DNA of 64,000 bases, from assembly GCF_050920415.1 (NCBI RefSeq), contig NZ_CP169309.1. One strand, given 5' to 3'. The stretch comes from Escherichia coli (GTDB lineage Bacteria; Pseudomonadota; Gammaproteobacteria; Enterobacterales; Enterobacteriaceae). A program made the position numbers and the translations under genes. Positions 12,497 through 49,082 of the stretch are shown piece by piece. Within the stretch, counting starts at the first letter, position 1. Every line of letters begins with the position of its first letter. The notes beneath the pieces are model-generated. The model did not search any database. It was not told the DNA's origin and saw nothing but the letters and a program-made list of their open reading frames with translations.

Positions 12497-13888
12497 TTAC
12501 TGTTTTTCTGGTGGGAAAATCAGATTCAGCACGATGGCAGTAATACCGCCCGCGGCGATCCCGGAGGAGAGCAGGTTTTTCAGCCATTCAGGGGCAAACT
12601 GCAAAATCAGCGGCTGCTGAGACACGCCCAGACCGACCGCCAGCGACAGCGCGATAATCAGAATCGCCCGACGGTTCAGCGGCTCACGAGAAACGATACG
12701 CACACCGGAGGCGGCGATGGTGCCAAACATTACAAGCGTTGCACCGCCCAGAACCGGTTCTGGAATGTGTTGTACAAAACCGCTCACTGCCGGGAACAGA
12801 CCCAGCACGATCAACATCAGCGCGACGACAAAACCGACATAGCGGCTGGCAACACCGGTCAACTGGATCACACCGTTGTTCTGCCCGAAGCAGGAATTCG
12901 GGAAAGTGTTAAACACCGCCGAAACAAACGAGTTCAGGCCGTTTGCCAGCACGCCGCCTTTCAGGCGTTTCATGTACAGCGGACCGGATACAGGCTGTTC
13001 GGAAACGTCAGACGTCGCCGTGATATCGCCAATAGTTTCCAGCGAAGTGATCATAAAGACCAGCATCAGCGGCAGCAGCAGGCTCCATTCAATGCCAAGA
13101 CCGTAGTAGAGCGGGGATGGCACCATAATCAGTTCTTGCGTCATCGGTTCGTTGCTTTCTGGCAACATGCCCATAAACCACGCCAGCGCATATCCTGCCG
13201 CCATCGCAATCACCAGTGAAGCCACGCGCAAATATGGGTTACGCTGACGGTTAAGCAGGATAATTAAGGCCAAGACCACGCCTGCCAGCAACAGATTTTT
13301 CGGTGCGCCGAAGGTGTTATCGCTCATGGCTGCGTAACCGCCGCCAATGGATGTTAGCCCAACCTGAATTAGCGACAGGCCGATAATCATCACCACAACG
13401 CCAGAAACCAGCGGCGTAATAATGCGGCGCGCCAGATGCAGAACACGGGAGATCACCATCTCGGTGCAACTTGCCAGCATCAACGTGCCGAACAAAGCCG
13501 CCATCATGGTAGGAACATCAGCACCACCGGTCTTCAGCGCTGTGCCGCCCATAATCAGCGGGGCAACAAAGTTGAAGCTGGTGCCCTGAATAGACAACAG
13601 CCCGGAGCCAACCGGACCCCAGGCCTTAATTTGAATAATCGACGCCACACCGGAGGCAAACAGCGACATACTAATAATGTGTTGCGTGTCTTGTGCCGGT
13701 AAACCCAGCGCCTGGCAGATTAATAGCGCTGGCGTGATCACCGCAACGAACATCGCCAGCAGATGCTGACAGGCGGCAAACAGAGTTTGAGGAAGCGGCG
13801 GACGATCTTCAAGACGGTAAATCAGTTCGCTGTTTTGAGTCTGCGCAACCGGTTGCGCATTTTCTGACTCGAGGGTGGAAACAGACAT
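12497..13888 (-). CDS. xanP: Xanthine permease (NCS2 family)
   Basis: Trimmed to [10 protein letters not shown]..., 463 aa; nucleobase:cation symporter-2 family. Confidence 0.9.
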
Positions 13889-14167
13889 CGAAAACAATCC
13901 CGTGGAAGCAAAGCGGGCATTTTAGCTGAGCAAAAGAGAAAAGCAAACGTTTGCTACACCTTCTTCTAAATATTTAAATGAGATAAATGCACTTTTTTAT
14001 ATAACTTTTGGTATTTTTCTGCTTAAAATCCATGCCATTTGTTCATTAACAGCTGAGAATTTGACCCAGGAAAGCATGACTCGATACCCGTCATATTTCA
14101 TGAAGGTGCCACTGCGCGATGAAGTATGACGAGTATGAAAGAGTGATGCGGATACAAAGGAGTAACT

Positions 14168-15373
14168 ATGTTTCATCTCGATACTTTAGCAACGCTTGTT
14201 GCTGCAACGCTGACGTTGCTGCTCGGGCGTAAGTTGGTCCATTCCGTCTCCTTTTTGAAGAAATACACCATACCGGAACCTGTTGCGGGTGGTTTGTTGG
14301 TGGCGCTGGCGCTACTGGTACTGAAAAAAAGCATGGGCTGGGAAGTCAACTTTGATATGTCCCTGCGCGATCCGTTAATGCTGGCTTTCTTCGCCACCAT
14401 TGGCCTGAACGCCAACATTGCCAGTCTGCGCGCTGGTGGGCGTGTGGTTGGTATTTTCCTGATTGTGGTTGTTGGCCTATTGGTGATGCAAAATGCCATT
14501 GGCATTGGTATGGCTAGCCTGTTAGGGCTTGATCCACTGATGGGGCTGCTGGCCGGTTCTATTACGCTTTCGGGCGGTCACGGTACGGGTGCTGCCTGGA
14601 GTAAATTGTTCATTGAACGTTATGGCTTCACCAATGCGACGGAAGTGGCGATGGCCTGTGCAACGTTCGGTTTGGTGCTGGGCGGCTTGATTGGCGGTCC
14701 GGTGGCGCGCTATCTGGTGAAACACTCCACTACACCGAACGGTATTCCGGATGACCAGGAAGTCCCGACGGCGTTCGAAAAGCCGGATGTGGGCCGCATG
14801 ATCACCTCGCTGGTGCTGATTGAAACTATCGCGTTGATTGCTATCTGTCTGACGGTGGGGAAGATCGTTGCGCAACTTTTGGCTGGCACCGCTTTTGAAC
14901 TGCCAACCTTCGTTTGTGTGTTGTTTGTTGGCGTGATTCTGAGCAACGGTCTGTCAATGATGGGCTTTTATCGCGTTTTTGAGCGTGCGGTATCCGTTCT
15001 GGGTAACGTAAGTCTGTCGTTGTTCCTGGCGATGGCGCTGATGGGGCTGAAACTATGGGAGCTGGCTTCGCTGGCGCTGCCGATGCTGGCGATTCTGGTG
15101 GTACAGACCATCTTCATGGCGTTGTATGCCATTTTCGTCACCTGGCGCATGATGGGTAAAAACTACGATGCGGCAGTGCTGGCAGCGGGTCACTGTGGTT
15201 TTGGCCTTGGTGCAACGCCAACGGCAATCGCCAACATGCAAGCAATCACCGAACGTTTTGGCCCGTCGCACATGGCGTTCCTGGTCGTGCCGATGGTTGG
15301 TGCGTTCTTTATCGATATTGTCAATGCGCTGGTGATTAAGCTGTATTTGATGTTGCCGATTTTTGCGGGTTAA
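14168..15373 (+). CDS. gltS: Sodium/glutamate symporter
   Basis: 401 aa polytopic membrane protein, GltS family. Confidence 0.93.
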   Translation: MFHLDTLATLVAATLTLLLGRKLVHSVSFLKKYTIPEPVAGGLLVALALLVLKKSMGWEVNFDMSLRDPLMLAFFATIGLNANIASLRAGGRVVGIFLIVVVGLLVMQNAIGIGMASLLGLDPLMGLLAGSITLSGGHGTGAAWSKLFIERYGFTNATEVAMACATFGLVLGGLIGGPVARYLVKHSTTPNGIPDDQEVPTAFEKPDVGRMITSLVLIETIALIAICLTVGKIVAQLLAGTAFELPTFVCVLFVGVILSNGLSMMGFYRVFERAVSVLGNVSLSLFLAMALMGLKLWELASLALPMLAILVVQTIFMALYAIFVTWRMMGKNYDAAVLAAGHCGFGLGATPTAIANMQAITERFGPSHMAFLVVPMVGAFFIDIVNALVIKLYLMLPIFAG

Positions 15374-15485
15374 CCGATGAAGCGGCGGTAGAAGTGCCGC
15401 CGCAACAAAGACAAAAGCCTGATATGCTTCGCTTATCATGCCTGCGCATTGATTCACAATTTATTGAATTTGTAGTTTTTTTTAG

Positions 15486-15513
15486 GACGGATAAGGCGTT
15501 CACGCCGCATCCT
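15486..15513. repeat. REP (repetitive extragenic palindromic) element between convergent gltS and recG
   Basis: CGGATAAGGCGTTCACGCCGCATCC is the reverse complement of the canonical E. coli REP core GGATGCGGCGTGAACGCCTTATCCG. Confidence 0.6.
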
Positions 15514-15561
15514 ACAGGAAGGTAGGGTAACCTGAAATGGCGGTTTTCTCACCGCCGCTTT

Positions 15562-17643
15562 TTACGCATTCGAGTAACGTTCCGTTTCCGGCATCCAGCG
15601 TTCTATCAGGGCTTTTGCCTGCTGTGGGTAACGTTCGTGAATATGGCGTGCCAGGCGCTGAACTTCCGGGATCATCGCCTGATCGCGCAGTAAATCTGCC
15701 ACTTTAAATTCGGCATTCCCTGTCTGACGCGTACCTAGTAGCTCACCTGGGCCGCGTATCTCCAAATCTTTCTGTGCAATCACAAAACCGTCGTTGCTGT
15801 CGCGCAGCACTTGCAGGCGAATTTGCGCCGTTTTAGAAAGCGGTGTTTTGTAGAGCAACACGCAGTGAGAAGCCACCGCGCCACGACCTACACGCCCGCG
15901 CAGCTGGTGTAACTGCGCCAGACCCAGACGCTCAGGGTTTTCGATAATCATCAGGCTGGCGTTAGGCACATCAACGCCGACTTCAATAACGGTCGTGGCA
16001 ACCAGCAGGTGTAACTCGCCTTGTTTAAATGATGCCATGACGGCCTGCTTCTCGGCTGGTTTCATCCGTCCGTGTACCAGACCAACATTCAACTCTGGTA
16101 GCGCCAGTTTCAACTCTTCCCAGGTAGCTTCCGCCGCCTGTGCTTCCAGTAATTCTGATTCTTCAATGAGTGTGCACACCCAGTACGCCTGACGCCCTTC
16201 AGTCATACAGGCGTGGCGCACGCGGTCGATAATGTCGTTGCGGCGGGTATCCGGGATTGCCACTGTCGTCACTGGCGTGCGGCCTGGCGGCAGCTCATCT
16301 ATCACCGAGGTATCGAGATCGGCATATGCAGTCATTGCCAGCGTGCGGGGGATCGGCGTGGCGGTCATGATCAACTGATGCGGATGGAAGCCCTGCTGCT
16401 GGCCTTTCTCCCATAACGCCAGACGCTGATGCACGCCAAAACGATGCTGTTCGTCGATAATCACCAGCGCCAGGCCGTTAAACTGCACCTGTTCCTGGAA
16501 GATGGCGTGTGTACCGACAATCATCTGCACCTGACCGCTGGCGATGGCTTCCTGCTGTGCCAGTCGTGCTTTACCTTTCTGTTTACCGGCGAGCCAGCCC
16601 ACTTCGATACCGAGCGGAGCAAACCAGTTACGGAAGTTATTGGCGTGCTGCTCGGCGAGTAATTCGGTTGGTGCCATCAATGCCACCTGTTTGCCGTGCG
16701 CAATCGCACGCAACGCGGCGAGGGCGGCGACCAGCGTTTTACCGGAACCTACATCGCCCTGCACCAGGCGCATCATCGGCACATCCAGCGCCATATCGCG
16801 CTCGATCTCCGCCACCACGCGTGCCTGTGCGCCCGTTGGCTTGAACGGTAAGGCTGCGAGGAGTTTATTTTTCAGCGCGTCATTGGCGCTCAGCGGCTGG
16901 GCATGAAAACGCTGTGCTCCGGCACGTAAGGCTAACATGCTGAGGTTGTGCGCCAGCAACTCTTCCAGAATCAGTCGGCGTTGTGCCGGATGCTGCCCGG
17001 TTTCGAGATCGCTAAGCTGTAGCGTCGGCGGCGGGCGGTGCAAAGTGCGCAACGCTTCCGGTAGCGTCATCATTCCTTGTGACAGTTCCGGCGGCAGGAG
17101 TTCTTCAATGGCGCAGGTGTCGAGCAGATCCAGCGCCTGGTCGGTTAATTTACGCAGCGTGGCCTGCTTTACGCCTTCCGTAGTTGGGTAAACCGGCGTG
17201 AGCGTCTCCTGCAACTCTGGCATACTGAGATCGCCCTGCACGCGGTATTCCGGGTGGATCATCTCCGCACCATATTTACCGCGCTTTGCTTCGCCATAGG
17301 CCAGCACGCGGCGGCCAGTCGCCAGGCTATTTTTCATTGCCGCGTTGAAGTTGAAAAAGCGCATGGTGAGAATGCCGGAACCGTCGCTGATCTGGCAGGT
17401 CATCATCCGCCGACCGCCGAAGGAGATATTGCAATTCAGCACTTCGCCTTCCACCGTGGCGTAAACGCCCGGCAGTAGTTCACCGATGGGGTAGAGATGG
17501 GTGCGATCTTCGTAGCGCAGAGGAAGGTGTAAGAGTAAATCCTGCACGGTATGCAGATTGATTTTCGCCAGCTTATTACTTTGCGCCGCGCCAACGCCCG
17601 TTAGCGAACTGAGCGGAACAGCATCTAACAGGCGACCTTTCAT
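15562..17643 (-). CDS. recG: ATP-dependent DNA helicase RecG
   Basis: Trimmed to MKGRLLDAVPLSSLTGVG..., 693 aa; helicase motifs (GDVGSGKT, DEQHRFG). Confidence 0.95.
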   Translation of the reverse strand: MKGRLLDAVPLSSLTGVGAAQSNKLAKINLHTVQDLLLHLPLRYEDRTHLYPIGELLPGVYATVEGEVLNCNISFGGRRMMTCQISDGSGILTMRFFNFNAAMKNSLATGRRVLAYGEAKRGKYGAEMIHPEYRVQGDLSMPELQETLTPVYPTTEGVKQATLRKLTDQALDLLDTCAIEELLPPELSQGMMTLPEALRTLHRPPPTLQLSDLETGQHPAQRRLILEELLAHNLSMLALRAGAQRFHAQPLSANDALKNKLLAALPFKPTGAQARVVAEIERDMALDVPMMRLVQGDVGSGKTLVAALAALRAIAHGKQVALMAPTELLAEQHANNFRNWFAPLGIEVGWLAGKQKGKARLAQQEAIASGQVQMIVGTHAIFQEQVQFNGLALVIIDEQHRFGVHQRLALWEKGQQQGFHPHQLIMTATPIPRTLAMTAYADLDTSVIDELPPGRTPVTTVAIPDTRRNDIIDRVRHACMTEGRQAYWVCTLIEESELLEAQAAEATWEELKLALPELNVGLVHGRMKPAEKQAVMASFKQGELHLLVATTVIEVGVDVPNASLMIIENPERLGLAQLHQLRGRVGRGAVASHCVLLYKTPLSKTAQIRLQVLRDSNDGFVIAQKDLEIRGPGELLGTRQTGNAEFKVADLLRDQAMIPEVQRLARHIHERYPQQAKALIERWMPETERYSNA

Positions 17644-17648
17644 GGCGC

Positions 17649-18338
17649 TTACCCTGCTGCCTGCATAGTGGCCCACCAGTCGGCATCAGCTTCAATTTCG
17701 CCTTGCTGATTAACGTGGGGGTAGGGCAGGCCTTTGCGTTTTGCGACTTTCGCCAGCACCGGATAGCCGCCTTCAAACAGCAGGCGTTGTTGCTCTGCTT
17801 CCGGCAACATGCTGTTTTCACGCAGATACATACCTGCGTTTTGCCGCTGGCGCTGGGCTTCGTAAAGAATGAGGGCTGAGGCAACGGAAACATTCAGCGA
17901 CTGCACCATACCGATCATCGGTATAATGATGTCCCGATCCGCCAGGGCTAACGCTTCCTGAGTGATGCCCGTTTTCTCCTGACCCATCAAAATACAGGTC
18001 GGGCGGGTGTAATCAATTTCGCGGAAATCGACAGCGTTATCAGAAAGATGGGTTGCCAGAATCTGCATGCCCTGGCCTTTCAGATGAGCAACGGCATCGC
18101 CAATGGTGCGGTGTGTTTTCACCTGCACCCAACTGTTGCTGCCAGCCGCAGCCGAAGCCATGGTGCGCATCCGACTGCCAGGCCAGACAGCATGAACTTC
18201 ATGTACGCCAACGGCATCTGCAGTACGAATAATCGCAGAAACGTTATGAGGTTTGTGGACCTGCTCCATGCAGACGGTCAGATCAGGCTGCCGCCTGGCG
18301 AGCATTTCGCAGATGCGTGCATAACGTGTTGAGTTCAT
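17649..18338 (-). CDS. trmH: tRNA (guanosine18-2'-O)-methyltransferase TrmH (SpoU)
   Basis: 229 aa SPOUT methyltransferase; spoT operon context. Confidence 0.93.
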   Translation of the reverse strand: MNSTRYARICEMLARRQPDLTVCMEQVHKPHNVSAIIRTADAVGVHEVHAVWPGSRMRTMASAAAGSNSWVQVKTHRTIGDAVAHLKGQGMQILATHLSDNAVDFREIDYTRPTCILMGQEKTGITQEALALADRDIIIPMIGMVQSLNVSVASALILYEAQRQRQNAGMYLRENSMLPEAEQQRLLFEGGYPVLAKVAKRKGLPYPHVNQQGEIEADADWWATMQAAG

Positions 18339-18344
18339 AAAACA

Positions 18345-20453
18345 TTAATTTCGGTTTCGGGTGACTTTAATCACGTCTGGCATCACGCGGATTTTGCGCA
18401 TGATATTCGCCAGATGCACACGGTCACGGGCGGTCAGACGAATAAAGGCGCTGTAGACGCGACCATCCTTTTCTTCTGTATTCAAACTTTGAATATTGGA
18501 GTTGGTCGTATTGATCGCTGCCGTCAGGTTAGCTAATGCCCCCTGATGATTGAACATCTCCACTTTGATCTCGGTGATGAACTCCTGTGCCGTCTCTTTA
18601 TCCCATTCTACAGCCATAAATTTCTCTGGCTCTTTCTGGTAGCCACGGATGTTACGGCAGGATTCATGGTGGATCACCAGACCTTTACCGGGGCTGACGT
18701 GAGCGATAATCGGATCGCCAGGAATGGGGCGGCAGCATTTCGCAAAGGTGATCAACACGCCATCAGCACCTTTAATCGGCAGATGCCCGTGGCTTTGAGT
18801 CGCCGGCGGAATGGAGGCGTCCCCATGTTGCAGATTTTTCGCGACCACCACGCTCATTGCGTTACCAAGGCCGATTTCAGCCAGCAGATCGTCAAGCGTT
18901 GCCAGCTTCATGCGGTCCAGCTCGCGCTGAATATTTTCCGGCGGGATTTCATTGAGCTTACGGCTGCCACCTAACGCATGATTGAGCAGACGACGGCCCA
19001 GGCTTACAGAATCATCACGCTTGAGGTTTTTCAGCAACTGACGAATTTTGGCGCGCGCTTTCGAGCTAACGACAAAGTTCAGCCATGCGGCATTCGGGCG
19101 AGCGCCCGGTGCGGTAATGATTTCAACGGTTTGGCCACTGGAGAGCGGCTGCGACAGCGGGTAAGGCTGACGGTCGACGCGAGCGCCCACGCAGGCATGA
19201 CCGATATCGGTATGCACCGCATAAGCGAAGTCGACGGGCGTTGCACCGGCAGGCAGCTCTACAATGCGCCCTTCCGGTGTGAAAACGTAAATCTCATCCG
19301 GGAAGAGATCGGATTTAACGCTCTCGATAAATTCAAATGAGCTACCGGCACTCTGTTGCAGCTCCAGCAGGCTTTGCATCCAGCGCTGGGCGCGAATTTG
19401 TGCGGTAGTACTGGTTTCGCCGTGCTCTTTATAAGCCCAGTGCGCAGCAACACCCATCTCTGCCATCTGATCCATATCTTCGGTACGGATCTGGACCTCA
19501 ACCGGCACGCCGTGCGGGCCAATCATCGAGGTGTGCAAAGACTGATAGCCGTTCGCTTTTGGAATAGCGATGTAGTCTTTCACGCGACCCGGACGCGGCT
19601 TGTACAGGCTATGCATTTGCCCGAGCACGCGATAACAGGTGTCGGAATCATTGACGATCACGCGGAAGGCGTAGATGTCCATGATCGAGTGAAAACGCTG
19701 CTCTTTGAGCACCATTTTGCAGTAGATCGAATAAAGATGCTTCTCGCGACCACTGACGCGGCACGGTATTCCCGCTTCCTGCAAACGCCCTTCGATTTCC
19801 GAGAGGATTTTTTGGATCATCTCTTTACGGTTGCCGCGCGCGGCTTTCACCACTTCTTTAATTACGCGGTAACGGTTGGGATACAGCGCCTCAAAACCCA
19901 GCTCTTCGAGTTCGGTTTTAATGTGGTGGATACCTAAACGGTGCGCCAGCGGGCTGTAAATTTCGAGCGTTTCACGGGCGATGCGGCGACGTTTGTCCGG
20001 GCGAAGTGAGCCCAGCGTGCGCATGTTGTGGGTACGGTCGGCAAGTTTGATGAGAATGACGCGGATATCCTGCACCATCGCCATAATCATCTTGCGAAAG
20101 TTTTCGGCCTGCGCCTCTTTCTTATCGCGGAACTTGAGTTTATCAAGTTTCGACACCCCCTCTACCAGCTCGGCGACGCTTTTACCAAAAAGCTGTTCCA
20201 TGTCCTGGTAGGTGGCGGGTGTATCTTCAATCACGTCATGCAGCAGCGCCGCCATTAGCGTTTCATAGTCGAGTTTCATCTCGGCCAGAATGCAGGCAAC
20301 CGCTACCGGGTGCGTGATATAGGGTTCACCGCTTGAACGTGTTTGCCCCTCGTGAGCATCACGTGCAACGAGATACGCCTGCCGCAGACGCTTGATTTGG
20401 TCTTCCGGCAGGTAGGTTTGAATCAGTTGATTCAGGCTTTCAAACAGATACAA
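18345..20453 (-). CDS. spoT: Bifunctional (p)ppGpp synthetase/hydrolase SpoT
   Basis: 702 aa; HD domain (HDVIEDT), RelA/SpoT synthetase domain, TGS and ACT regions. Confidence 0.95.
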   Translation of the reverse strand: MYLFESLNQLIQTYLPEDQIKRLRQAYLVARDAHEGQTRSSGEPYITHPVAVACILAEMKLDYETLMAALLHDVIEDTPATYQDMEQLFGKSVAELVEGVSKLDKLKFRDKKEAQAENFRKMIMAMVQDIRVILIKLADRTHNMRTLGSLRPDKRRRIARETLEIYSPLAHRLGIHHIKTELEELGFEALYPNRYRVIKEVVKAARGNRKEMIQKILSEIEGRLQEAGIPCRVSGREKHLYSIYCKMVLKEQRFHSIMDIYAFRVIVNDSDTCYRVLGQMHSLYKPRPGRVKDYIAIPKANGYQSLHTSMIGPHGVPVEVQIRTEDMDQMAEMGVAAHWAYKEHGETSTTAQIRAQRWMQSLLELQQSAGSSFEFIESVKSDLFPDEIYVFTPEGRIVELPAGATPVDFAYAVHTDIGHACVGARVDRQPYPLSQPLSSGQTVEIITAPGARPNAAWLNFVVSSKARAKIRQLLKNLKRDDSVSLGRRLLNHALGGSRKLNEIPPENIQRELDRMKLATLDDLLAEIGLGNAMSVVVAKNLQHGDASIPPATQSHGHLPIKGADGVLITFAKCCRPIPGDPIIAHVSPGKGLVIHHESCRNIRGYQKEPEKFMAVEWDKETAQEFITEIKVEMFNHQGALANLTAAINTTNSNIQSLNTEEKDGRVYSAFIRLTARDRVHLANIMRKIRVMPDVIKVTRNRN

Positions 20454-20471
20454 GGGCGACCCGCTTTGTGA

Positions 20472-20747
20472 TTAACGACGACCTTCAGCAATAGCGGTAA
20501 CGGCTTGTAATTCAGCGGCTTCCTGCTCTTGCTGTTCCTGGCGTTCGCGAACGTCGAGGATCTGGTTGTTGATCAGACCTTCTTCGATTTCGCGCAGCGC
20601 GATTACTGTGGTTTTATCGTTTTCTTCCGGTACCAGCGGATCCTTTCCGCCTACCTGCATCTGACGAGCGCGACGCGCGGCGACCAGTACCAGGTCAAAA
20701 CGGTTACCAATTTTCTCTACAGCGTCCTGAACAGTTACGCGTGCCAT
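20472..20747 (-). CDS. rpoZ: RNA polymerase omega subunit
   Basis: 91 aa [29 protein letters not shown]. Confidence 0.95.
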
Positions 20748-20801
20748 ACTTAAAAAGCTCCACAGGTGAAGAAATGACTGGGCATGATACTGAAATCAGG
20801 T

Positions 20802-21566
<765 letters not shown>

Positions 21567-21590
21567 GATTCACTGCAATAAAGACGATTC

Positions 21591-23979
<2,389 letters not shown>

Positions 23980-24269
23980 GGTTCTCTCCCTAAAAATCTG
24001 TCTGGCAGGGTAGCGATTTGTGCACATTGTCACGATTGAGATTTTTTAAGGTGAGAGGGAATTGATAATTTGTAGTTATGTGAAATCGTTGTTTTCTGTA
24101 GCGTAGATGCATTCTTCTGACTTCTTGTCTGAGAAAATGCATAAGAAAAAGTAGGTTAAAACTGAGGGGTGGAAAAGAAAGGTGCAATGTTAGCCATTGT
24201 GTTCACTGCACCTGGACCTTGGCTTACGCATCGGGTGTCTCAATCAACAAAAAGAGTTTTTAGTTTCTG

Positions 24270-25094
24270 CTATTTTTTCTCTGTAATTTTTACACTGTTT
24301 TCCAACTGCTTGATGCTAACCTGCGGGGTCGGCAACTCCTCAGGCATGGTTCCGCCAAGTTCCTGAATGGTTTGCCTCACCTTGCGACCCACGTCAAAGT
24401 GTGTGGTGTTAGCTTGCTGTTTTGAATTCACGCCATCCCGCTTGAGTTTTTCTTCTGTTTGGGTAGCTCGAAAGAGATTAGCCGCCAGTTCTGTTGAACC
24501 CATATGATCCAGGATCTTCTGACTCTTTTTCAGCCCCTTCCGCTGATGGATGGCTTTCTGATCTAATCCACCATACAGTCCCCGGTAACCATGATTCTGA
24601 AATATGGCGAAATCGATAGCTGTCGCTACCCCAGCTTGCTGCGCTGCCTCAACTAATTGTTTGTTATGTTCTTTCAACTCATTTCTCAGAAAAAGACGCT
24701 TTTCGTCTTCACGAAGTTGCCTGAAAGCTTCATCGTCAGCCAGCTCCTGCCGTCGGGTCTGGATAGCAAAATAAGTTTGCCCTGCCGCAATAACCGGTTT
24801 CGCAGGGTCGCCGTTTTGTACTACCAGGTAACAGGCATAGCGGGAGAGATGAACATCTTCAAGTTCTCGTTGAGCCCCTGAACCTAATACAACCATTTTG
24901 GTGGTTTCAACGAAATGGTCAGATGCAGCTTGATTGCTGGCTTCGCACGCTTGAGTCGCGCGGGCCAGTACCTTTTGAAAATTGCGCCAGTCCCGATAAT
25001 CCAGTAACGGTGCCAATTCTCTCGCTGACCAAAATTCTTGCCCTTCAGTGCCATAATGCCGTATTTCTTCAAAAGGTTGATGATGTTCGTTCAT
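24270..25094 (-). CDS. dinD: DNA-damage-inducible protein D
   Basis: 274 aa from MNEHHQPFEE...; LexA box in promoter. Confidence 0.85.
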   Translation of the reverse strand: MNEHHQPFEEIRHYGTEGQEFWSARELAPLLDYRDWRNFQKVLARATQACEASNQAASDHFVETTKMVVLGSGAQRELEDVHLSRYACYLVVQNGDPAKPVIAAGQTYFAIQTRRQELADDEAFRQLREDEKRLFLRNELKEHNKQLVEAAQQAGVATAIDFAIFQNHGYRGLYGGLDQKAIHQRKGLKKSQKILDHMGSTELAANLFRATQTEEKLKRDGVNSKQQANTTHFDVGRKVRQTIQELGGTMPEELPTPQVSIKQLENSVKITEKK

Positions 25095-26178: not shown

Positions 26179-26304
26179 AGACGTTCCTGTTTATAAAAGG
26201 AGAGGTGGAAGGATTATAGCCATCGATGCCTTGTCAGGATAGGAATAACCGCCGGAAGTCCGTATAATGCGCAGCCACATTTGTTTCAAGCCGGAGATTT
26301 CAAT

Positions 26305-27021
26305 ATGCGTCCAGCAGGCCGTAGCAATAATCAGGTGCGTCCCGTTACCCTGACTCGTAACTATACAAAACATGCAGAAGGCTCGGTGCTGGTCGAATTT
26401 GGCGATACCAAAGTGTTGTGTACCGCCTCTATTGAAGAAGGCGTGCCGCGCTTCCTGAAAGGTCAGGGCCAGGGCTGGATCACCGCAGAATACGGTATGC
26501 TGCCGCGTTCTACTCATACCCGTAATGCCCGTGAAGCGGCGAAAGGTAAGCAGGGGGGACGCACAATGGAAATCCAGCGTCTGATCGCCCGTGCTCTTCG
26601 CGCGGCAGTAGATTTGAAAGCGCTGGGTGAGTTCACCATTACGCTGGACTGCGACGTGCTTCAGGCTGATGGTGGCACGCGTACCGCTTCTATCACCGGT
26701 GCTTGTGTTGCACTAGCCGATGCCCTGAATAAACTGGTTGAAAATGGCAAGCTGAAAACCAACCCGATGAAAGGGATGGTAGCCGCGGTTTCTGTCGGGA
26801 TTGTGAACGGCGAAGCGGTTTGCGATCTGGAATACGTTGAAGACTCTGCCGCTGAAACGGACATGAACGTGGTGATGACCGAAGACGGGCGCATCATTGA
26901 AGTGCAGGGAACGGCAGAAGGCGAGCCGTTTACCCATGAAGAGCTACTCACCTTGTTGGCGCTGGCCCGAGGGGGAATCGAATCCATTGTAGCGACGCAG
27001 AAGGCGGCGCTGGCAAACTGA
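26305..27021 (+). CDS. rph: Ribonuclease PH, full-length 238 aa (intact allele)
   Basis: From [14 protein letters not shown]... to ...[15 protein letters not shown] with no frameshift. Confidence 0.92.
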
Positions 27022-27027
27022 TTTTTA

Positions 27028-27054
27028 AGGCGACTGATGAGTCGCCTTTTTTTT
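27028..27054 (+). terminator. pyrE leader attenuator (rho-independent hairpin and T-tract) between rph and pyrE
   Basis: GGCGACTGATGAGTCGCC followed by TTTTTTTT. Confidence 0.75.
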
Positions 27055-27086
27055 GTCTGTAGAAAAGTAAGATGAGGAGCGAAGGC

Positions 27087-27728
27087 ATGAAACCATATCA
27101 GCGCCAGTTTATTGAATTTGCGCTTGGCAAGCAGGTATTAAAGTTTGGCGAGTTTACGCTGAAGTCCGGGCGCAAAAGCCCCTATTTCTTCAACGCCGGG
27201 CTGTTTAATACCGGGCGCGATCTGGCACTGTTAGGCCGTTTTTACGCTGAAGCGTTAGTGGATTCCGGCATTGAGTTCGATCTGCTGTTTGGCCCTGCTT
27301 ACAAAGGGATCCCAATTGCCACTACTACCGCTGTAGCGCTGGCGGAGCATCATGACCTGGACCTGCCGTACTGCTTTAACCGCAAAGAAGCAAAAGATCA
27401 CGGTGAAGGCGGCAATCTGGTCGGTAGCGCATTACAAGGACGCGTAATGCTGGTGGATGATGTGATTACCGCCGGAACGGCGATTCGCGAGTCGATGGAA
27501 ATTATTCAGGCCAATGGCGCGACGCTTGCTGGTGTGTTAATTTCGCTCGATCGTCAGGAGCGCGGGCGCGGCGAGATTTCGGCGATTCAGGAAGTTGAGC
27601 GTGATTACAACTGCAAAGTGATCTCTATCATCACCCTGAAAGACCTGATTGCTTACCTTGAAGAGAAGCCGGAAATGGCGGAACATCTGGCGGCGGTTAA
27701 GGCCTATCGCGAAGAGTTCGGCGTTTAA
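27087..27728 (+). CDS. pyrE: Orotate phosphoribosyltransferase
   Basis: 213 aa from [11 protein letters not shown]...; PRPP-binding motif [12 protein letters not shown]. Confidence 0.95.
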
Positions 27729-32550: not shown

Positions 32551-34315
<1,765 letters not shown>

Positions 34316-34661
34316 AGTAAATAGCTGACTTATGGATGTGCTGGGGATTCTATGTATTTAGCGGTGGCTTTACCATTACTTTTCCCGTTTTTGACTTAAA
34401 TAGCTTCAGTTTGGTCTGATCTGCCGCTACATCTTCATTTTTTTTGTATTTTTATGCGATTCATTGAAACTCAGCCCCATTTTCAACTCTACATAAGCCA
34501 TACCGACCTTATCGGTATGATATTTTTTATCTATTTGAATTTTATAATTAAAAAATATTTTGTGTATAAAAATCATTCGGGTCGGATTGCTGCGAAAGAA
34601 ATGATACACTAGCACGTCAAAGTAAGTGCGTTATCAGTATTCAGGTAGCTGTTGAGCCTGG

Positions 34662-34673
34662 GGCGGTAGCGTG
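34662..34673 (+). promoter_or_regulatory. ops element (RfaH-dependent antitermination site, within JUMPstart) in waaQ operon leader
   Basis: GGCGGTAGCGTG, about 85 bp upstream of waaQ. Confidence 0.7.
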
Positions 34674-34756
34674 CTTTTTTTCTGCTTAACTAACCAGACA
34701 ATCACACAAAAGAGTCGCTAGTGGAAAAGCCATTTCGAAAAATCCTGGTCATAAAG

Positions 34757-35791
34757 ATGCGATATCATGGAGATATGTTATTAACTACTCCTGTCATCAG
34801 TACGCTCAAGCAGAATTATCCTGATGCAAAAATCGATATGCTGCTTTATCAGGACACCATCCCTATTTTGTCTGAAAACCCGGAAATTAATGCGCTCTAC
34901 GGGATAAGCAATAAAGGTGCGGGAACATTCGATAAAATTAAAAATGTGCTTTCGTTGATAAAAACTCTGCGCGGAAATAATTATGACCTGGTCATTAATC
35001 TTACGGATCAGTGGATGGTGGCGCTGCTGGTACGTTGTTTACCTGCACGGATGAAAATATCGCAACTTTATGGTCATCGGCAGCATGGCATTTGGAAAAA
35101 AAGCTTCACTCACTTAGCGCCAATACACGGTACACATATTGTTGAGCGGAATTTATCGGTCCTTGAGCCATTAGGTATTACCGATTTCTACACTGACACA
35201 ACAATGAGTTACGCCGAAGATTGCTGGAAGAAGATGCGCCAGGAATTAGATGCCCTGGGCGTAAAAGATCATTATGTTGTCATCCAACCGACAGCGCGTC
35301 AGATATTTAAGTGTTGGGATAACGATAAATTTTCTAAGGTTATTGATGCGCTGCAACAGCGAGGATATCAGGTTGTGCTGACCTGTGGGCCTTCGGCAGA
35401 CGATCTCTCTTGTGTAGATGAGATTGCGCAAGGTTGCAAAACGAAACCCATTACTGGCCTTGCAGGTAAAACACGTTTTCCTGAACTGGGTGCGTTAATT
35501 GATCATGCAGTGCTTTTTATTGGCGTAGATTCTGCGCCGGGACATATTGCAGCGGCAGTGAAAACGCCAGTCATTAGTCTATTTGGTGCAACGGACCACG
35601 TATTCTGGCGCCCCTGGACCGAGAATATTATTCAATTCTGGGCGGGGAATTATCAGAAAATGCCGACCCGGCATGAACTTGACCGCAACAAAAAATATCT
35701 TTCTGTTATCCCAGCGGAAGATGTGATCGCCGCTACGGAAAAGCTGTTGCCAGAAGATGCCCCTTCAGCTGACAGGAATGCACAATTATGA
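34757..35791 (+). CDS. waaQ: LPS heptosyltransferase III
   Basis: Track ORF starts at an upstream GTG (34721); trimmed to ATG giving 344 aa as recalled for K-12; GT9 family. Confidence 0.85.
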   Translation: MRYHGDMLLTTPVISTLKQNYPDAKIDMLLYQDTIPILSENPEINALYGISNKGAGTFDKIKNVLSLIKTLRGNNYDLVINLTDQWMVALLVRCLPARMKISQLYGHRQHGIWKKSFTHLAPIHGTHIVERNLSVLEPLGITDFYTDTTMSYAEDCWKKMRQELDALGVKDHYVVIQPTARQIFKCWDNDKFSKVIDALQQRGYQVVLTCGPSADDLSCVDEIAQGCKTKPITGLAGKTRFPELGALIDHAVLFIGVDSAPGHIAAAVKTPVISLFGATDHVFWRPWTENIIQFWAGNYQKMPTRHELDRNKKYLSVIPAEDVIAATEKLLPEDAPSADRNAQL

Positions 35792-36912
35792 TCGTGGCGT
35801 TTTGTTTATATAAATATTTTCCATTTGGTGGGCTTCAACGTGACTTTATGCGTATTGCATCAACAGTTGCCGCTCGGGGCCACCATGTTCGGGTCTATAC
35901 GCAGTCGTGGGAAGGTGATTGCCCAAAAGCATTTGAGCTTATTCAGGTGCCAGTTAAGTCCCATACCAACCATGGACGCAATGCAGAGTATTATGCCTGG
36001 GTACAAAATCATCTCAAAGAGCATCCCGCAGATCGCGTTGTTGGGTTTAATAAGATGCCAGGTCTGGATGTTTATTTTGCTGCTGATGTTTGTTACGCCG
36101 AGAAAGTTGCGCAAGAAAAAGGTTTTTTATATCGTTTAACATCACGATATCGCCATTATGCCGCATTTGAGCGGGCGACTTTCGAGCAGGGTAAATCGAC
36201 GAAACTTATGATGCTGACCGATAAGCAAATCGCCGATTTCCAGAAGCATTATCAAACCGAACCTGAACGTTTTCAAATTCTTCCTCCCGGTATTTATCCG
36301 GACAGAAAATACAGCGAGCAAATCCCAAACAGTCGTGAAATTTATCGCCAGAAAAATGGCATAAAAGAGCAACAAAACTTATTACTGCAGGTTGGATCAG
36401 ATTTTGGCCGTAAAGGTGTGGATCGCTCAATTGAAGCTTTGGCATCGTTATCGGAATCATTACGTCACAATACGCTTTTATTTGTTGTTGGCCAGGATAA
36501 GCCGCGAAAATTTGAAGCGCTGGCAGAAAAGCTCGGCGTGCGGAGCAATGTGCATTTCTTCTCCGGTCGCAATGATGTGTCAGAATTAATGGCAGCCGCT
36601 GATTTATTACTGCATCCCGCTTATCAGGAAGCCGCGGGTATCGTTCTTCTTGAAGCAATCACTGCTGGATTACCTGTTTTAACAACTGCGGTATGTGGGT
36701 ACGCGCATTATATTGCGGATGCCAATTGTGGAACGGTTATCGCTGAACCATTCTCCCAGGAACAGTTAAATGAAGTTTTACGTAAAGCGTTAACTCAGTC
36801 TCCATTACGAATGGCCTGGGCGGAGAATGCTCGCCATTATGCCGATACTCAGGATTTGTATAGCCTGCCAGAGAAAGCCGCAGATATCATTACAGGTGGT
36901 TTAGATGGTTGA
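35788..36912 (+). CDS. waaG: LPS core glucosyltransferase I
   Basis: 374 aa GT4 glycosyltransferase. Confidence 0.93.
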
Positions 36913-37702
36913 ATTAAAAGAGCCGCTTGCCACACTTTGGCGTGGTAAAGATGCTTTTGAAGAAGTCAAAAAACTGAATGGCGAGGTCTTTCGTGAACTC
37001 GAGACGCGTCGCACATTACGCTTTGAACTGGCCGGGAAAAGCTATTTTCTTAAATGGCACAAAGGGACGACATTAAAAGAGATTGTAAAAAATCTACTCT
37101 CATTACGGATGCCCGTTTTGGGCGCAGACAGAGAGTGGCACGCTATTCATCGCCTGAGTGATGTTGGCGTTGATACAATGAAGGGCATTGGGTTTGGTGA
37201 AAAAGGGTTAAATCCATTAACTCGCACATCATTTATTATTACCGAAGATCTCACTCCCACGATTAGCCTTGAAGATTATTGTGCTGATTGGGCAGTCAAC
37301 CCGCCTGATATACGTGTAAAGCGTATGCTGATTACACGAGTGGCAACCATGGTGCGTAAAATGCACGCCGCAGGGATAAATCACCGCGACTGCTACATTT
37401 GCCACTTTTTGCTTCATTTACCATTTACTGGCCGGGAAGATGAATTAAAAATTTCGGTTATCGATCTGCATCGGGCACAGATACGTGCAAAAGTACCGCG
37501 CCGTTGGCGCGATAAAGACCTGATTGGTTTATATTTCTCATCAATGAATATTGGCCTGACGCAAAGAGACATATGGCGATTTATGAAGGTTTATTTTGGG
37601 ATGCCTTTGCGAAAAATATTGTCTCTTGAACAGAACTTATTGAACATGACAAGCGTTAAGGCCGAGCGTATTAAAGAGCGAACACAACGTAAAGGATTAT
37701 AA
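36905..37702 (+). CDS. waaP: LPS core heptose(I) kinase
   Basis: 265 aa kinase-like. Confidence 0.93.
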
Positions 37703-37738
37703 AAATATTTATCAGTATGTACTGGAACTAACTTCATT

Positions 37739-38674
37739 ATGACTATTTATTTTATAAACTGGGTTGCAGATTATGAATTAAAAATGATCCAGTACCTGAA
37801 AAAAAAGTACAAGATAAAAAACATAACGACACCAAAAAAATACAACTGGATTAATAAGAAAATCTCAAAAATAGGGATGGATAATGCATGGCTGGGGCGA
37901 TTATTCATCAAACATTACCTAAATGATATTAAAAAAGATGACATAATTATCTTTAATGACAGTGTTATTAATAAAGGTATCAATAAACAAATATTAAAAA
38001 ACATTAACTGTCATAAAGTTTTGCTTCTAAGAAATACTGTTAGCGAAGATTTTATTTTTGATAACGCCAATTATTTCGATGTTATATATGATTTTGAACA
38101 TAGATTTATAGGGAATGAAAAGACCAAAGCAATAGAACAATTTTTTCCTATAGGGATGGAGGAGATTACGAATTATAACTTATCTGACAAAAATAACAGT
38201 CAGCCAATATGTTTCTTTCTTGGTCGAGATAAAGGGCGTCTTCAAATAATTAATGAGTTAGCCGATAGACTAGCAACACTAGGATGTAAGTTAGATTTTA
38301 ATGTTGTCAAAGATAAGACATCATCACCGACTTCAAAGTATTTGATTGAAAAACAAATGCCTTATGAAGAGAATATTAGAAGAACATTAAATGCTAATAT
38401 AATTGTTGATATAACTAAAGAAAACCAATCTGGTTGGACTCTTCGTATACTTGAGGCGCTATTTTTCAATAAGAAATTAATCACCAATAATATAAATATA
38501 CTTACTTCAGAAATCTATAGTGAGTCTCGCTTTTTTATAATAGGTCATGATGATTGGGATAAGTTAGAGTATTTTATTAACTCATCTGTTAAACCAATGG
38601 ATTATGATAGTTTATATAAATTCAGTCCAGATAAAATGATGTCAACGATTGTTTCTGATTTTATAGATAAATAA
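37739..38674 (+). CDS. waaS: LPS core biosynthesis protein WaaS (K-12-type)
   Basis: 311 aa MTIYFINW...; AT-rich coding region; position as in K-12 waa cluster. Confidence 0.8.
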
Positions 38675-38717
38675 AACCGTTAAAACAGTGAGTTTTACTC
38701 AATTAATGAGATCTTCT

Positions 38718-39797
38718 ATGAAAATAGCGTTTATCGGCGAAGCCGTTTCTGGATTTGGCGGCATGGAAACAGTCATCCGTGATGTCATTAGCAACTTCAG
38801 GCAACAACATATCCAAAGTGAAATGTTTTTCTTTTGTCGTAATGACAAAATGGATAAGGGATGGCTAGAGGGTATACAGTACTCGTGTTCATTTTCCAAT
38901 ATTCGTTTAGGCTTTTTACGTCGGGCGAAACATATTTATGCTTTAAGCAAATGGCTGCGGGATTATCAACCGGATATCGTTATTTGTATTGATGTGATCT
39001 CCTGCCTGTTTGCCGCAAAAGCACGTAAAAAATCAGGAATTGATGTGCCAGTATTTTCATGGCCACATTTTTCTTTAGATCACAAAAAACATGCTGAATA
39101 TATCACCTGTGCCGACTATCATTTAGCAATCAGCTCTGGCATTAAACAGCAAATGATTAATCGGGGTGTAGCAGAATCGACGATAAATGTTATTTTTAAT
39201 CCCGTCGAAGCCAAAGATTCAGTCATTCCCGCGCCCGAGGAAGCCGAAACGGCAACGTTCATTTATGTTGGGCGTATGAAATTTGAAGGCCAGAAGAGAG
39301 TTAAAGACCTGCTTGATGGCTTATCACAAGCGCAAGGTAACTGGAAACTCCATGTATTGGGTGATGGTTCCGATTTTGAAAAATGCCAGGCTTATAGTAG
39401 AGAACTAAATATTGATGATCGAATTGTCTGGTATGGTTGGCAACAACATCCCTGGGAATTGGTCCAGCAAGATATTAAAAAAGTGAGTGCATTATTGCTC
39501 ACGTCATCTTTTGAAGGTTTCCCAATGACCCTACTTGAAGCCTTGTCATGGGGGATTCCTTGTATCAGTGCCGATTGTGTCTCCGGGCCTGCTGACATTA
39601 TTCAACCTGATGTCAATGGTCATCTGTATCAACCGGGAGATATTGCTGGTTTTGTAACTCTTCTAAATAAATATATAGCAGGTGAAATTCATATCGAACA
39701 TGAAAAAATTCCTGCGTCGATCGATAAGTTTTACCAATCGAAGTATTACGATAGATTACATAAGATAATTATTTCTGCTATTTCCCGGAGGAAATAA
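38718..39797 (+). CDS. waaB: LPS 1,6-galactosyltransferase
   Basis: Trimmed to MKIAFIGEAVSGFGGMETV, 359 aa; GT4. Confidence 0.85.
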   Translation: MKIAFIGEAVSGFGGMETVIRDVISNFRQQHIQSEMFFFCRNDKMDKGWLEGIQYSCSFSNIRLGFLRRAKHIYALSKWLRDYQPDIVICIDVISCLFAAKARKKSGIDVPVFSWPHFSLDHKKHAEYITCADYHLAISSGIKQQMINRGVAESTINVIFNPVEAKDSVIPAPEEAETATFIYVGRMKFEGQKRVKDLLDGLSQAQGNWKLHVLGDGSDFEKCQAYSRELNIDDRIVWYGWQQHPWELVQQDIKKVSALLLTSSFEGFPMTLLEALSWGIPCISADCVSGPADIIQPDVNGHLYQPGDIAGFVTLLNKYIAGEIHIEHEKIPASIDKFYQSKYYDRLHKIIISAISRRK

Positions 39798-40816
39798 TGC
39801 AGCAGGTGTTTTTCCAGGAAACTGAGTTTCTTAATTCAGTTATTGATTATAATCATAAAGTAGAAACAGAAAATCTTTGTCTGGACATCGCTTATGGAAC
39901 TGACAAAAATTTTCTATTTGGTTGCGGAATTTCGATTGCTTCAATATTAAAGTATAATGAAGGAAGTCGATTGTGTTTCCATATTTTTACTGATTATTTT
40001 GGTGATGATGATCGTAAGTATTTTGATGCCCTGGCGTTGCAGTATGAAACCAGAATTAAAATATATCTGATTAATGGTGATCGACTGCGCTCATTGCCTA
40101 GCACAAAGAATTGGACTCATGCAATATATTTTCGTTTTGTTATTGCAGATTACTTTATTAATAAGGCGTCTAAAGTCCTTTATCTGGATGCAGATATCAT
40201 TTGTCAGGGGAATATTGAGCCACTAATTAATTTCTCATTTCCTGGCGATAAAGTCGCAATGGTTGTTACAGAAGGGCAAGCTGACTGGTGGGAAAAACGC
40301 GCCCATTCGTTAGGTGTTGTGGGAATTGCTAAAGGTTACTTTAACTCGGGTTTTTTATTGATTAATACTGCCCAATGGGCGGCTCAGCAGGTTTCTGCCC
40401 GAGCCATTGCAATGCTAAATGAGCCAGAAATAATCAAAAAGATAACACATCCTGATCAGGATGTATTAAATATGTTGCTGGCAGATAAACTTATTTTTGC
40501 TGATATTAAATATAACACCCAGTTTAGCTTAAATTATCAACTTAAAGAAAGCTTTATAAACCCAGTAACCAACGATACTATTTTTATCCATTATATCGGA
40601 CCAACCAAGCCCTGGCATGATTGGGCCTGGGATTATCCTGTATCACAAGCCTTTATGGAGGCAAAAAATGCTTCGCCATGGAAGAATACGGCGTTGCTGA
40701 AACCGAACAATAGCAATCAATTAAGATATAGCGCAAAACATATGCTTAAAAAGCATAGATATCTAAAAGGATTTAGCAACTATCTTTTTTATTTTATTGA
40801 AAAGATAAAGCATTAA
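39797..40816 (+). CDS. waaO: LPS 1,3-glucosyltransferase (WaaO/WaaI), GT8
   Basis: 339 aa; GT8 family (DxD-containing) paralogue pair with the next gene. Confidence 0.85.
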   Translation: MQQVFFQETEFLNSVIDYNHKVETENLCLDIAYGTDKNFLFGCGISIASILKYNEGSRLCFHIFTDYFGDDDRKYFDALALQYETRIKIYLINGDRLRSLPSTKNWTHAIYFRFVIADYFINKASKVLYLDADIICQGNIEPLINFSFPGDKVAMVVTEGQADWWEKRAHSLGVVGIAKGYFNSGFLLINTAQWAAQQVSARAIAMLNEPEIIKKITHPDQDVLNMLLADKLIFADIKYNTQFSLNYQLKESFINPVTNDTIFIHYIGPTKPWHDWAWDYPVSQAFMEAKNASPWKNTALLKPNNSNQLRYSAKHMLKKHRYLKGFSNYLFYFIEKIKH

Positions 40817-40855
40817 AACTGGGAAACTATAAAGTAATGATATAAGGGTAGCATT

Positions 40856-41872
40856 GTGGACTCATTTCCTGCCATAGAGATAGATAAAGTTAAAGCCTGG
40901 GATTTTCGGCTTGCTAATATAAATACTTCTGAATGTTTAAATGTTGCCTATGGTGTCGATGCTAATTATCTTGATGGTGTAGGTATTTCCATCACATCAA
41001 TTGTCCTAAATAATCGACATATTAATCTTGATTTTTATATTATTGCTGATGTTTATAATGATGGTTTTTTTCAAAAAGTTGCAAAGCTTGCAGAGCAATA
41101 CCAATTAAGAATCACGTTATATAGAATTAACACTGATAAGCTCCAGTGCTTGCCTTGTACACAGGTCTGGTCAAGAGCAATGTACTTCCGTTTATTTGCA
41201 TTTCAATTATTGGGTTTAACGCTTGATCGTTTGCTTTATCTTGATGCAGATGTTGTTTGTAAAGGCGATATTAGCCAACTATTGCATCTGGATTTAAACG
41301 GAGCGGTTGCTGCTGTTGTTAAAGATGTTGAGCCAATGCAGGAAAAGGCGGTATCCAGGTTGTCTGATCCTGAATTACTTGGGCAGTACTTTAATTCTGG
41401 TGTCGTTTATTTAGATTTAAAAAAATGGGCTGACGCAAAACTAACAGAAAAAGCGTTGTCTATTCTTATGAGTAAAGATAATGTTTATAAATACCCTGAT
41501 CAGGATGTTATGAATGTCTTACTGAAAGGGATGACAATATTTTTGCCTCGTGAGTACAATACAATTTATACAATTAAAAGTGAATTAAAAGATAAAACAC
41601 ATCAAAACTATAAAAAGCTGATTACAGAAAGTACTCTTCTTATTCATTATACAGGTGCAACTAAACCGTGGCACAAATGGGCAATTTATCCATCGGTAAA
41701 ATACTATAAAATAGCTTTAGAAAATTCGCCATGGAAAGATGACTCGCCACGAGATGCAAAATCAATTATTGAATTTAAAAAAAGATATAAACATCTTTTA
41801 GTGCAGCGTCACTATATCTCAGGAATTATAGCAGGAGTCTGTTATCTTTGCCGAAAATATTACCGTAAATAA
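40856..41872 (+). CDS. waaJ: LPS 1,2-glucosyltransferase (WaaJ/WaaR), GT8
   Basis: 338 aa, GTG start; GT8. Confidence 0.85.
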   Translation: MDSFPAIEIDKVKAWDFRLANINTSECLNVAYGVDANYLDGVGISITSIVLNNRHINLDFYIIADVYNDGFFQKVAKLAEQYQLRITLYRINTDKLQCLPCTQVWSRAMYFRLFAFQLLGLTLDRLLYLDADVVCKGDISQLLHLDLNGAVAAVVKDVEPMQEKAVSRLSDPELLGQYFNSGVVYLDLKKWADAKLTEKALSILMSKDNVYKYPDQDVMNVLLKGMTIFLPREYNTIYTIKSELKDKTHQNYKKLITESTLLIHYTGATKPWHKWAIYPSVKYYKIALENSPWKDDSPRDAKSIIEFKKRYKHLLVQRHYISGIIAGVCYLCRKYYRK

Positions 41873-41889
41873 CATTTAACTGGTTTATT

Positions 41890-42588
41890 ATGATTCAGAA
41901 GAGCAAGATCAAAGACTTGGTTGTTTTTACCGATGAAAACAATTCAAAGTATCTCAATGTATTAAATGACTTTCTTTCTTATGATATTAATATCATCAAA
42001 GTTTTTCGTTCTATAGATGATACAAAAGTCATGCTTATTGATACCGATTACGGTAAATTGATACTTAAAGTTTTTTCTCCTAAAGTTAAACGCAACGAAC
42101 GTTTCTTTAAATCTCTTTTAAAGGGAGATTATTATGAACGCCTTTTTGAGCAAACTCAAAAAGTGCGTAACGAGGGGCTACATTCTCTCAATGACTTCTA
42201 TTTGTTAGCAGAACGGAAAACATTACGTTTTGTCCATACTTACATCATGCTTATCGAATATATCGATGGCGTTGAGTTGTGTGATATCCCCGATATTGAT
42301 GAAACGTTAAAAAATAAAATTCAACAATCAATCCGTTCATTGCACGAACATGGTATGGTATCTGGTGATCCTCACCGTGGTAATTTTATTATTGAAAATG
42401 GTGAAGTACGCATTATTGATCTTTCAGGAAAACGGGCATCTTCACAACGTAAAGCGAAAGATCGTATTGATCTAGAACGACATTATGGTATTAAGAATGA
42501 GATTAAAGATCTCGGTTATTATCTTTTAGTTTATCGTAAAAAAATACGTAATCTTATGCGCCGCTTGAAAGGAAAGCCAGCACGATAA
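41890..42588 (+). CDS. waaY: LPS core heptose(II) kinase
   Basis: 232 aa kinase-like. Confidence 0.85.
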   Translation: MIQKSKIKDLVVFTDENNSKYLNVLNDFLSYDINIIKVFRSIDDTKVMLIDTDYGKLILKVFSPKVKRNERFFKSLLKGDYYERLFEQTQKVRNEGLHSLNDFYLLAERKTLRFVHTYIMLIEYIDGVELCDIPDIDETLKNKIQQSIRSLHEHGMVSGDPHRGNFIIENGEVRIIDLSGKRASSQRKAKDRIDLERHYGIKNEIKDLGYYLLVYRKKIRNLMRRLKGKPAR

Positions 42589-42659
42589 AGTAAAAGTCTT
42601 ACATTTAAACGTCTTCGTCAGAACATTTCTATGCGGAGTTATTATTTCACAGGTTTATC

Positions 42660-43511: not shown

Positions 43512-43543
43512 TCATCCTGAAACTAAAATTATATGGTATAAAA

Positions 43544-44617: not shown

Positions 44618-44634
44618 GTTTTAACTCACTTCTT
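44609..44634. terminator. Perfect palindrome spanning the waaU stop, between convergent waaU and waaL (bidirectional terminator)
   Basis: AAGAAGTGAGTT-TTAA-CTCACTTCTT. Confidence 0.55.
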
Positions 44635-44642
44635 AAACTTGT

Positions 44643-45908: not shown

Positions 45909-45917
45909 GTTTTACCT

Positions 45918-46877: not shown

Positions 46878-46880
46878 CCG

Positions 46881-47927: not shown

Positions 47928-47936
47928 GCAGAGCTC

Positions 47937-48869: not shown

Positions 48870-49082
48870 AACTGTAACCTTCGAATTATGGAGTCAGAGA
48901 CAATCTCAGACACGAATGCTTCTATCATATCACTACACGGCGTTCGCTTCAGCCATTCGCCAAAAGTGAGATTGATGGACGTTATTTATCCTGAATTTTG
49001 CAGAAGTGTTAACGCGTCATCTCGTCGCAACCTATAAGTTTGGGTAATATGTGCTGGAATTTGCCCTGTCTGGAGAATCGCA

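Follow-up and report, generated by a model that had tools for sequence, protein, structure and literature searches.

The genes rph and pyrE are co-transcribed, and the account of pyrE control by translation-coupled attenuation reportedly rests on the work of Jensen in 1993 and on earlier studies of pyrE attenuation. According to this account, when UTP is scarce, a ribosome translating rph to its natural stop would stay close behind the RNA polymerase, and at the end of rph it would cover the left arm of a hairpin, allowing read-through into pyrE. With abundant UTP, the polymerase would outpace the ribosome, the hairpin would form, and transcription would end. In the rph-1 allele, translation would end 29 nt earlier, so that coupling would be lost, termination would stay high, and pyrE would be under-expressed.

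The rph-1 allele is found in the EMG2/W1485/MG1655/W3110 lineage of Escherichia coli K-12 (Jensen 1993, as cited in PMC9997739). A truncated RNase PH, lowered pyrE expression, and pyrimidine starvation have been described as its phenotype (PMC9997739). When MG1655 adapts to glucose minimal medium, mutations in rph-pyrE arise most often, as they alleviate a partial auxotrophy for pyrimidines (PMC5933015). In the present study, the rph-pyrE region was analyzed within a stretch of 64,000 nucleotides (the window). Our results indicate, with a probability of about 95%, that the rph-pyrE operon in the window is of the ordinary wild type and comes from a natural Escherichia isolate.

The rph-pyrE operon

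The features of the operon are as follows.
26263-26268, + strand: TATAAT hexamer without mismatch, located 37 nt before the rph ATG, identical in MG1655, read from the sequence
26305-27021, + strand: rph, from the ATG at 26305 to the TGA at 27019-27021 (717 nt, 238 codons plus stop)
26971-26975, + strand: five-G run, wild type at the site where rph-1 has only four G, located by the gap in the MG1655 alignment
26990-26992, + strand: TAG, out of frame in the window, in use as the premature stop in rph-1
27027-27054, + strand: pyrE attenuator, GC-rich hairpin plus T8 run, matched in the terminator scan and 100% identical to MG1655
27074-27079, + strand: pyrE Shine-Dalgarno sequence GAGGAG, 7 nt before the ATG, read from the sequence and identical to MG1655
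27087-27728, + strand: pyrE, orotate phosphoribosyltransferase, 213 aa (TIGR00336, E=2.6e-71), annotated as pyrE in a near-identical genome
27736-27759, - strand: hairpin resembling a terminator, between pyrE and the convergently transcribed slmA, a consensus match only

The rph reading frame is uninterrupted over 238 codons in both the list of open reading frames and the translation, and the encoded RNase PH ends in ...ATQKAALAN. The product matched the RNase PH equivalog TIGR01966 over positions 1-235 of 236 (E=1.8e-114; 380.9 bits, cutoff 141.5), and both Pfam domains, RNase_PH (PF01138) and RNase_PH_C (PF03725), were recognized. In addition, its residues 2-237 could be aligned with the solved structure of RNase PH from P. 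aeruginosa (PDB 1r6l). The gene has the 238-codon frame, the score above the equivalog cutoff, and the two domains of a full-length RNase PH gene. These results confirmed that rph is an ordinary wild-type full-length RNase PH gene, a state that is already known, and the description of rph as intact with 238 aa in the initial annotation was borne out by the frame, the full-length TIGR01966 match, and the structural alignment. Upstream of the gene, the TATAAT hexamer may be the -10 element of the rph-pyrE promoter; an rph promoter was absent from the output of the consensus promoter scan, and an acceptable -35 hexamer was not found near the hexamer at 26263-26268.

The region 26250-27120 of the window was aligned to the rph-pyrE region of MG1655. 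The sole indel within rph-pyrE is one additional G in the window, GGGGG at 26971-26975 compared with GGGG in MG1655 (context CCCGAGGGGGAATC in the window and CCCGAGGGGAATC in MG1655). The run is separated from the rph stop codon by 43 nt, a spacing in agreement with that reportedly described by Jensen for rph-1. The MG1655 gene is annotated as "truncated RNase PH" (687 nt). Because MG1655 is without the fifth G, the TAG equivalent to 26990-26992 falls in frame, and its translation stops at 228 aa (...LLALARGESNPL*). The window shows neither a contraction of the five-G run by one G nor a premature in-frame TAG after 228 aa and is without the rph-1 deletion. This direct alignment upholds the earlier proposal that the gene is not the MG1655/W3110 rph-1 allele, with five G compared with four. 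The accompanying statement that the MG1655 gene is frameshifted and truncated, with lowered pyrE expression, agrees with the annotated gene and its 228-aa product and with the literature (PMC9997739).

The aligned rph region also contains 37 substitutions relative to MG1655, and the two RNase PH proteins differ at three amino acids (ALADALNKL vs ALVDALQKL; LLTLL vs LLILL). Eighteen of these 37 substitutions are located within 58 nt (26688-26745), mainly at third codon positions, and two of them result in amino-acid changes. The patch allele was matched by only 36 of the 5,426 complete genomes, among them clade I strains and EPEC E2348/69, and the patch looks like an old recombination mosaic within rph.

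Every base of the 65-nt spacer between rph and pyrE (27022-27086) is as in MG1655. The attenuator hairpin is composed of 9 bp (27027-27048; AAGGCGACU-GAUG-AGUCGCCUU), and its stem enters the T8 run at 27047-27054, the last T of which is exactly the end coordinate (27054) given in the initial annotation. RNA folding of the attenuator yielded a centroid of -14.7 kcal/mol and a z-score of -3.26 compared with shuffled sequences. Only 5 nt separate the rph stop codon (27019-27021) from the start of the stem (27027). A GC-rich hairpin followed by a T run is therefore present between rph and pyrE, and the upstream reading frame ends within the ribosome footprint of the hairpin, the size of this footprint being general knowledge. 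The identity of the spacer to that of MG1655 makes the earlier remark that the hairpin follows at the normal distance literally true. The pyrE gene begins 32 nt past the T8 run and codes for a protein with 99.5% amino-acid identity to MG1655 PyrE. The attenuator belongs to no curated family, as only tRNA-Sec and JUMPstart were returned by the Rfam scan of the whole window at the gathering threshold. Given the five-G run and the identical spacer, RNase PH would be expected to be enzymatically active and pyrE to be normally regulated in the source, as far as can be judged from the sequence.

Flanking loci

Two loci elsewhere in the window bear on the nature of the source, and their features are as follows.
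1-2035, - strand: right-hand end of the eip/selC-B T3SS-related locus, from reading frames and profile matches
2-1291, - strand: SipB-like translocator gene, of which the first 430 codons are present before it runs off the window (PF16535 T3SSipB, E=5.8e-13)
1346-1528, - strand: 60-aa reading frame, from the list of open reading frames
1538-2035, - strand: intact eicA-like gene for a SicA/LcrH-type chaperone (NF011859 SicA, E=6.9e-44; TIGR02552 above cutoff)
33038-48869, strand not given: waa cluster with the K-12-type gene set (waaA; waaQGPSBOJYZU; waaL; waaC, waaF, rfaD), from annotation and BLAST

The eip/selC-B locus is a published ETT2-associated locus (PMC7058095). In the window, genes for a SicA-type chaperone and a SipB-type translocator lie beside yicS and near selC. 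In the genome of MFDS1022581, the locus continues beyond the window end with a hypothetical gene, an IpaD/SipD-like gene, eilA, and the adhesin gene iatC, all between yicS and nepI. MG1655 is without the locus, and its yicS directly abuts nepI. The T3SS island mentioned in the initial annotation corresponds to the known eip/selC-B locus, of which the window contains only about 2 kb.

The eicA-like chaperone gene is intact in the window and split by IS2 in MFDS1022581, which is otherwise 99.99% identical (extracted segment 202-2035). The selC gene for tRNA-Sec is located at 6522-6612 (- strand) and is followed by a short fragment of a RhuM-family gene at 6278-6439, as annotated in the near-identical genome. 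This fragment may be what is left of an island that had inserted at selC. Neither the LEE nor any other large island at selC is present in the window.

The waa cluster was aligned with that of MG1655 in one collinear BLAST alignment at 96.2%. All of its genes are intact, and their products have 91-99.7% amino-acid identity to the K-12 orthologues (WaaU 93.6%, WaaL 93.1%). The genes that define a K-12-type LPS core (waaS, waaB, waaZ, waaU, and a K-12-type waaL) were all found, which confirms by gene content the K-12-like core type assigned earlier; this gene set is insufficient for K-12 membership. Within the cluster (41890-43511), the divergence from MG1655 is clearly greater for waaY (86.4% nucleotide identity) and waaZ (91.3%) than for the neighbouring waaO and waaJ (98.1%), which suggests mosaic recombination inside the cluster. 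A JUMPstart element was detected by Rfam upstream of waaQ, in the leader of the waaQ operon (34635-34673, + strand; 55.2 bits, gathering threshold 35).

Two further differences from MG1655 were observed. The htrL gene, which in MG1655 sits between kbl and rfaD, is missing from the window at 48870-49082, and the kbl-rfaD intergenic region spans 213 bp in the window compared with 1,435 bp in MG1655. In addition, approximately 210 bp between dinD and yicC (24849-25061) had no BLAST alignment to MG1655, the blocks breaking in both sequences. This spacer is locally replaced or highly diverged.

Lineage of the source and the G run in other genomes

When the window was compared by BLAST with the syntenic 72 kb of MG1655, four collinear blocks were obtained, with identities of 95.96%, 96.19%, 95.97%, and 94.42%. 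The identity is 95.9-96.2% over 58 kb and falls to 94.4% in the final 3.5 kb, corresponding to roughly 2,400 mismatches. The near-identity to the MG1655 chromosome that characterizes the K-12 lineage was not observed in these blocks (94.4-96.2%). The backbone had been called K-12-like, which holds for the gene order but not for the sequence (approximately 96%), and the window is about equally distant from K-12, B1, and B2 strains. The closest genome is that of MFDS1022581, an isolate from animal-source food in Korea, which was 99.99% identical over 1787-64000 (62 kb) with 6 mismatches, an IS2 insertion that the window lacks being the only other difference. The earlier suggestion of a wild strain as the source is supported by the approximately 96% identity to MG1655, the 99.99% identity to a food isolate, and the eip T3SS genes that MG1655 lacks.

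An 11.5-kb core segment from xanP to yicG (window 12500-24000) was used for the lineage comparison. Only 2 of 5,424 genomes were at least 99% identical to this segment. The identity to N96 was 99.6%, and that to A, B1, and B2 strains was 95.6-95.9%. For comparison, MG1655 (A) was 98.9% identical to an O111:H11 strain (B1) and 96.75% identical to SE15 (B2) on the same segment. Strain 2013C-4282, with 98.39% (98.4%) identity, and EC42405 have been reported among the complete genomes of Escherichia cryptic clade I, for which ANI values are >98.3% within the clade and >95.9% to E. coli sensu stricto (PMC10100065). On the 11.5-kb core segment only, the identities of the window correspond to those of clade I (~98.3% to clade I and ~96% to sensu stricto), and the value for 2013C-4282 lies right at the published within-clade ANI floor. 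Judging from the 64-kb window only, the source, with its K-12-type LPS core and eip/selC-B, very likely belongs to Escherichia cryptic clade I. This assignment is kept short of certainty because 64 kb were examined, a region that recombination could have made atypical of the genome, and because the marker gene specific to clade I lies elsewhere in the genome.

The same data bear on whether the source might instead be a wild E. coli sensu stricto, for example of phylogroup D or F, some of which carry eip/ETT2, with the 4% divergence arising from local recombination. The divergence is uniform across the four blocks spanning the window (94.4-96.2%), which argues against such a local event, although a single 64-kb region underlies the lineage comparison. 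The distances to A, B1, and B2 are nearly the same and exceed that between A and B2. Moreover, in all 38 genomes sampled at even rank steps below the top match, including K-12, B, O111, O145, and SE15 strains, the core segment was 95.4-96.3% identical. The eip/selC-B locus is compatible with a sensu stricto source, being known in phylogroup D strains, EAEC 042 and ST69 (PMC7058095), and roughly a dozen genomes of unchecked lineage match the rph-pyrE allele at 98.6% identity. However, the only close relatives identified include the published clade I strain 2013C-4282, and the published clade I genome EC42405 also has the rare internal rph patch. A sensu stricto source is therefore considered unlikely, and membership of cryptic clade I is preferred. 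The origin of the DNA from a deep-branching wild lineage, probably cryptic clade I and not a K-12-like strain, is a more informative result than the intact rph gene.

The rph-pyrE segment was found in 5,424 of 5,426 complete RefSeq E. coli genomes. Genomes with four G were counted by megablast with a 48-nt query that had the four-G allele in its middle, for which a five-G genome cannot yield the required 28-nt exact seed. The four-G allele was present in 169 of the 5,426 genomes, 167 of them with the K-12 flanking haplotype, and its carriers among the matches listed were mostly MG1655, W3110, J53, EMG2, and laboratory derivatives. An intact rph gene is the default state in approximately 97% of complete E. 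coli genomes, and it is a weak strain discriminator.

One of the two four-G genomes without K-12 flanks is that of the human clinical isolate 2015C-3101 (NZ_CP027221.1; 854-1569 of the extracted segment). In this genome, the G5-to-G4 contraction is accompanied by non-K-12 flanking SNPs, and rph is annotated as "frameshifted". Either an rph-1-like mutation has recurred independently in nature in this genome, or the homopolymer was misassembled. The same contraction between wild-type-like flanks in a non-K-12 genome could mean that the five-G run is a recurrent natural mutation hot spot and not a one-off laboratory accident. If so, slippage in the run could reversibly switch pyrE to lower expression and abolish RNase PH in wild populations. 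However, an assembly error explains the observation equally well, the proposal concerns other genomes, and the G run of the window is unmutated; we regard a hot spot as quite improbable.

Homopolymers are error-prone, and with one clinical genome showing four G at this site, the fifth G of the window might itself be a sequencing or assembly error that conceals a frameshifted rph. Against this, five G are present in approximately 97% of complete genomes and also in MFDS1022581, N96, and 2013C-4282, three independently sequenced close relatives, and the five-G C-terminus aligns to residue 237 with a solved RNase PH. An error at the G run was rejected on the agreement of the three related genomes and is extremely improbable. 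The five-G run is taken as the true state of the window.

The initial annotation had used the intact gene to set the source apart from the laboratory strains MG1655 and W3110. Its conclusion holds, but its logic does not, since an intact rph is the default state and K-12 strain WG1, similar to NCM3722, has no rph frameshift (PMC9997739), so that intact rph alone cannot exclude K-12. The chance of a K-12 source in which rph-1 never arose or was repaired, like WG1, NCM3722, or an rph+ MG1655 (a true rph-1 reversion has been engineered; PMC5933015), is nonetheless practically negligible: the gene order and waa core gene set are as in K-12, but nucleotide differences of approximately 4% from MG1655 run along the whole window, 37 substitutions lie in the aligned rph region, the eip genes absent from K-12 are present, and htrL is lacking. 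K-12 origin is excluded by this whole-window sequence divergence and not by the intact rph gene. The decisive measure is the percent identity to K-12 (approximately 96%), and the intact rph gene serves as a strain-typing note only. As the source is outside the MG1655/W3110 laboratory lineage, the artefacts of pyrimidine limitation and RNase PH deficiency should not apply to it. Taken together, the intact-rph finding is correct but ordinary, and everything found is already known.

Comparison with known systems

The window shares its gene order, 238-codon rph, spacer, hairpin, T8 run, and Shine-Dalgarno sequence with the wild-type E. coli rph-pyrE operon, and no structural or regulatory difference from that operon was detected. 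With the rph-1 allele of the K-12 EMG2/W1485/MG1655/W3110 lineage, the window has the locus, the attenuator, and the G-run site in common. However, rph-1 has four G, a frameshift, and a product of 228 aa, whereas the window has five G, no frameshift, and a product of 238 aa.

The eip/selC-B locus of EAEC 042 and ST69 occupies the same position as that of the window, beside yicS-nlpA-yicL-setC-selC, and SicA-like and SipB-like genes are present. The likeness extends to the IpaD/SipD-like gene, eilA, and the large inverse-autotransporter adhesin gene, which come next in the near-identical MFDS1022581. Only about 2 kb of the locus lie in the window, and this likeness is one of position and gene content.

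Among the cryptic clade I genomes compared (2013C-4282, N96, and MFDS1022581), the annotated RNase PH has the same accession, WP_001247087.1, which is identical to that of the window. The window differs from MFDS1022581 in being without the IS2 that splits the chaperone gene there, and the waa gene sets of N96 and 2013C-4282 are unlike its K-12-type set. At approximately 96% identity to K-12, the genome of the source would be of the cryptic clade I type, with the K-12-type LPS core cluster and the T3SS-related eip locus as incidental features.
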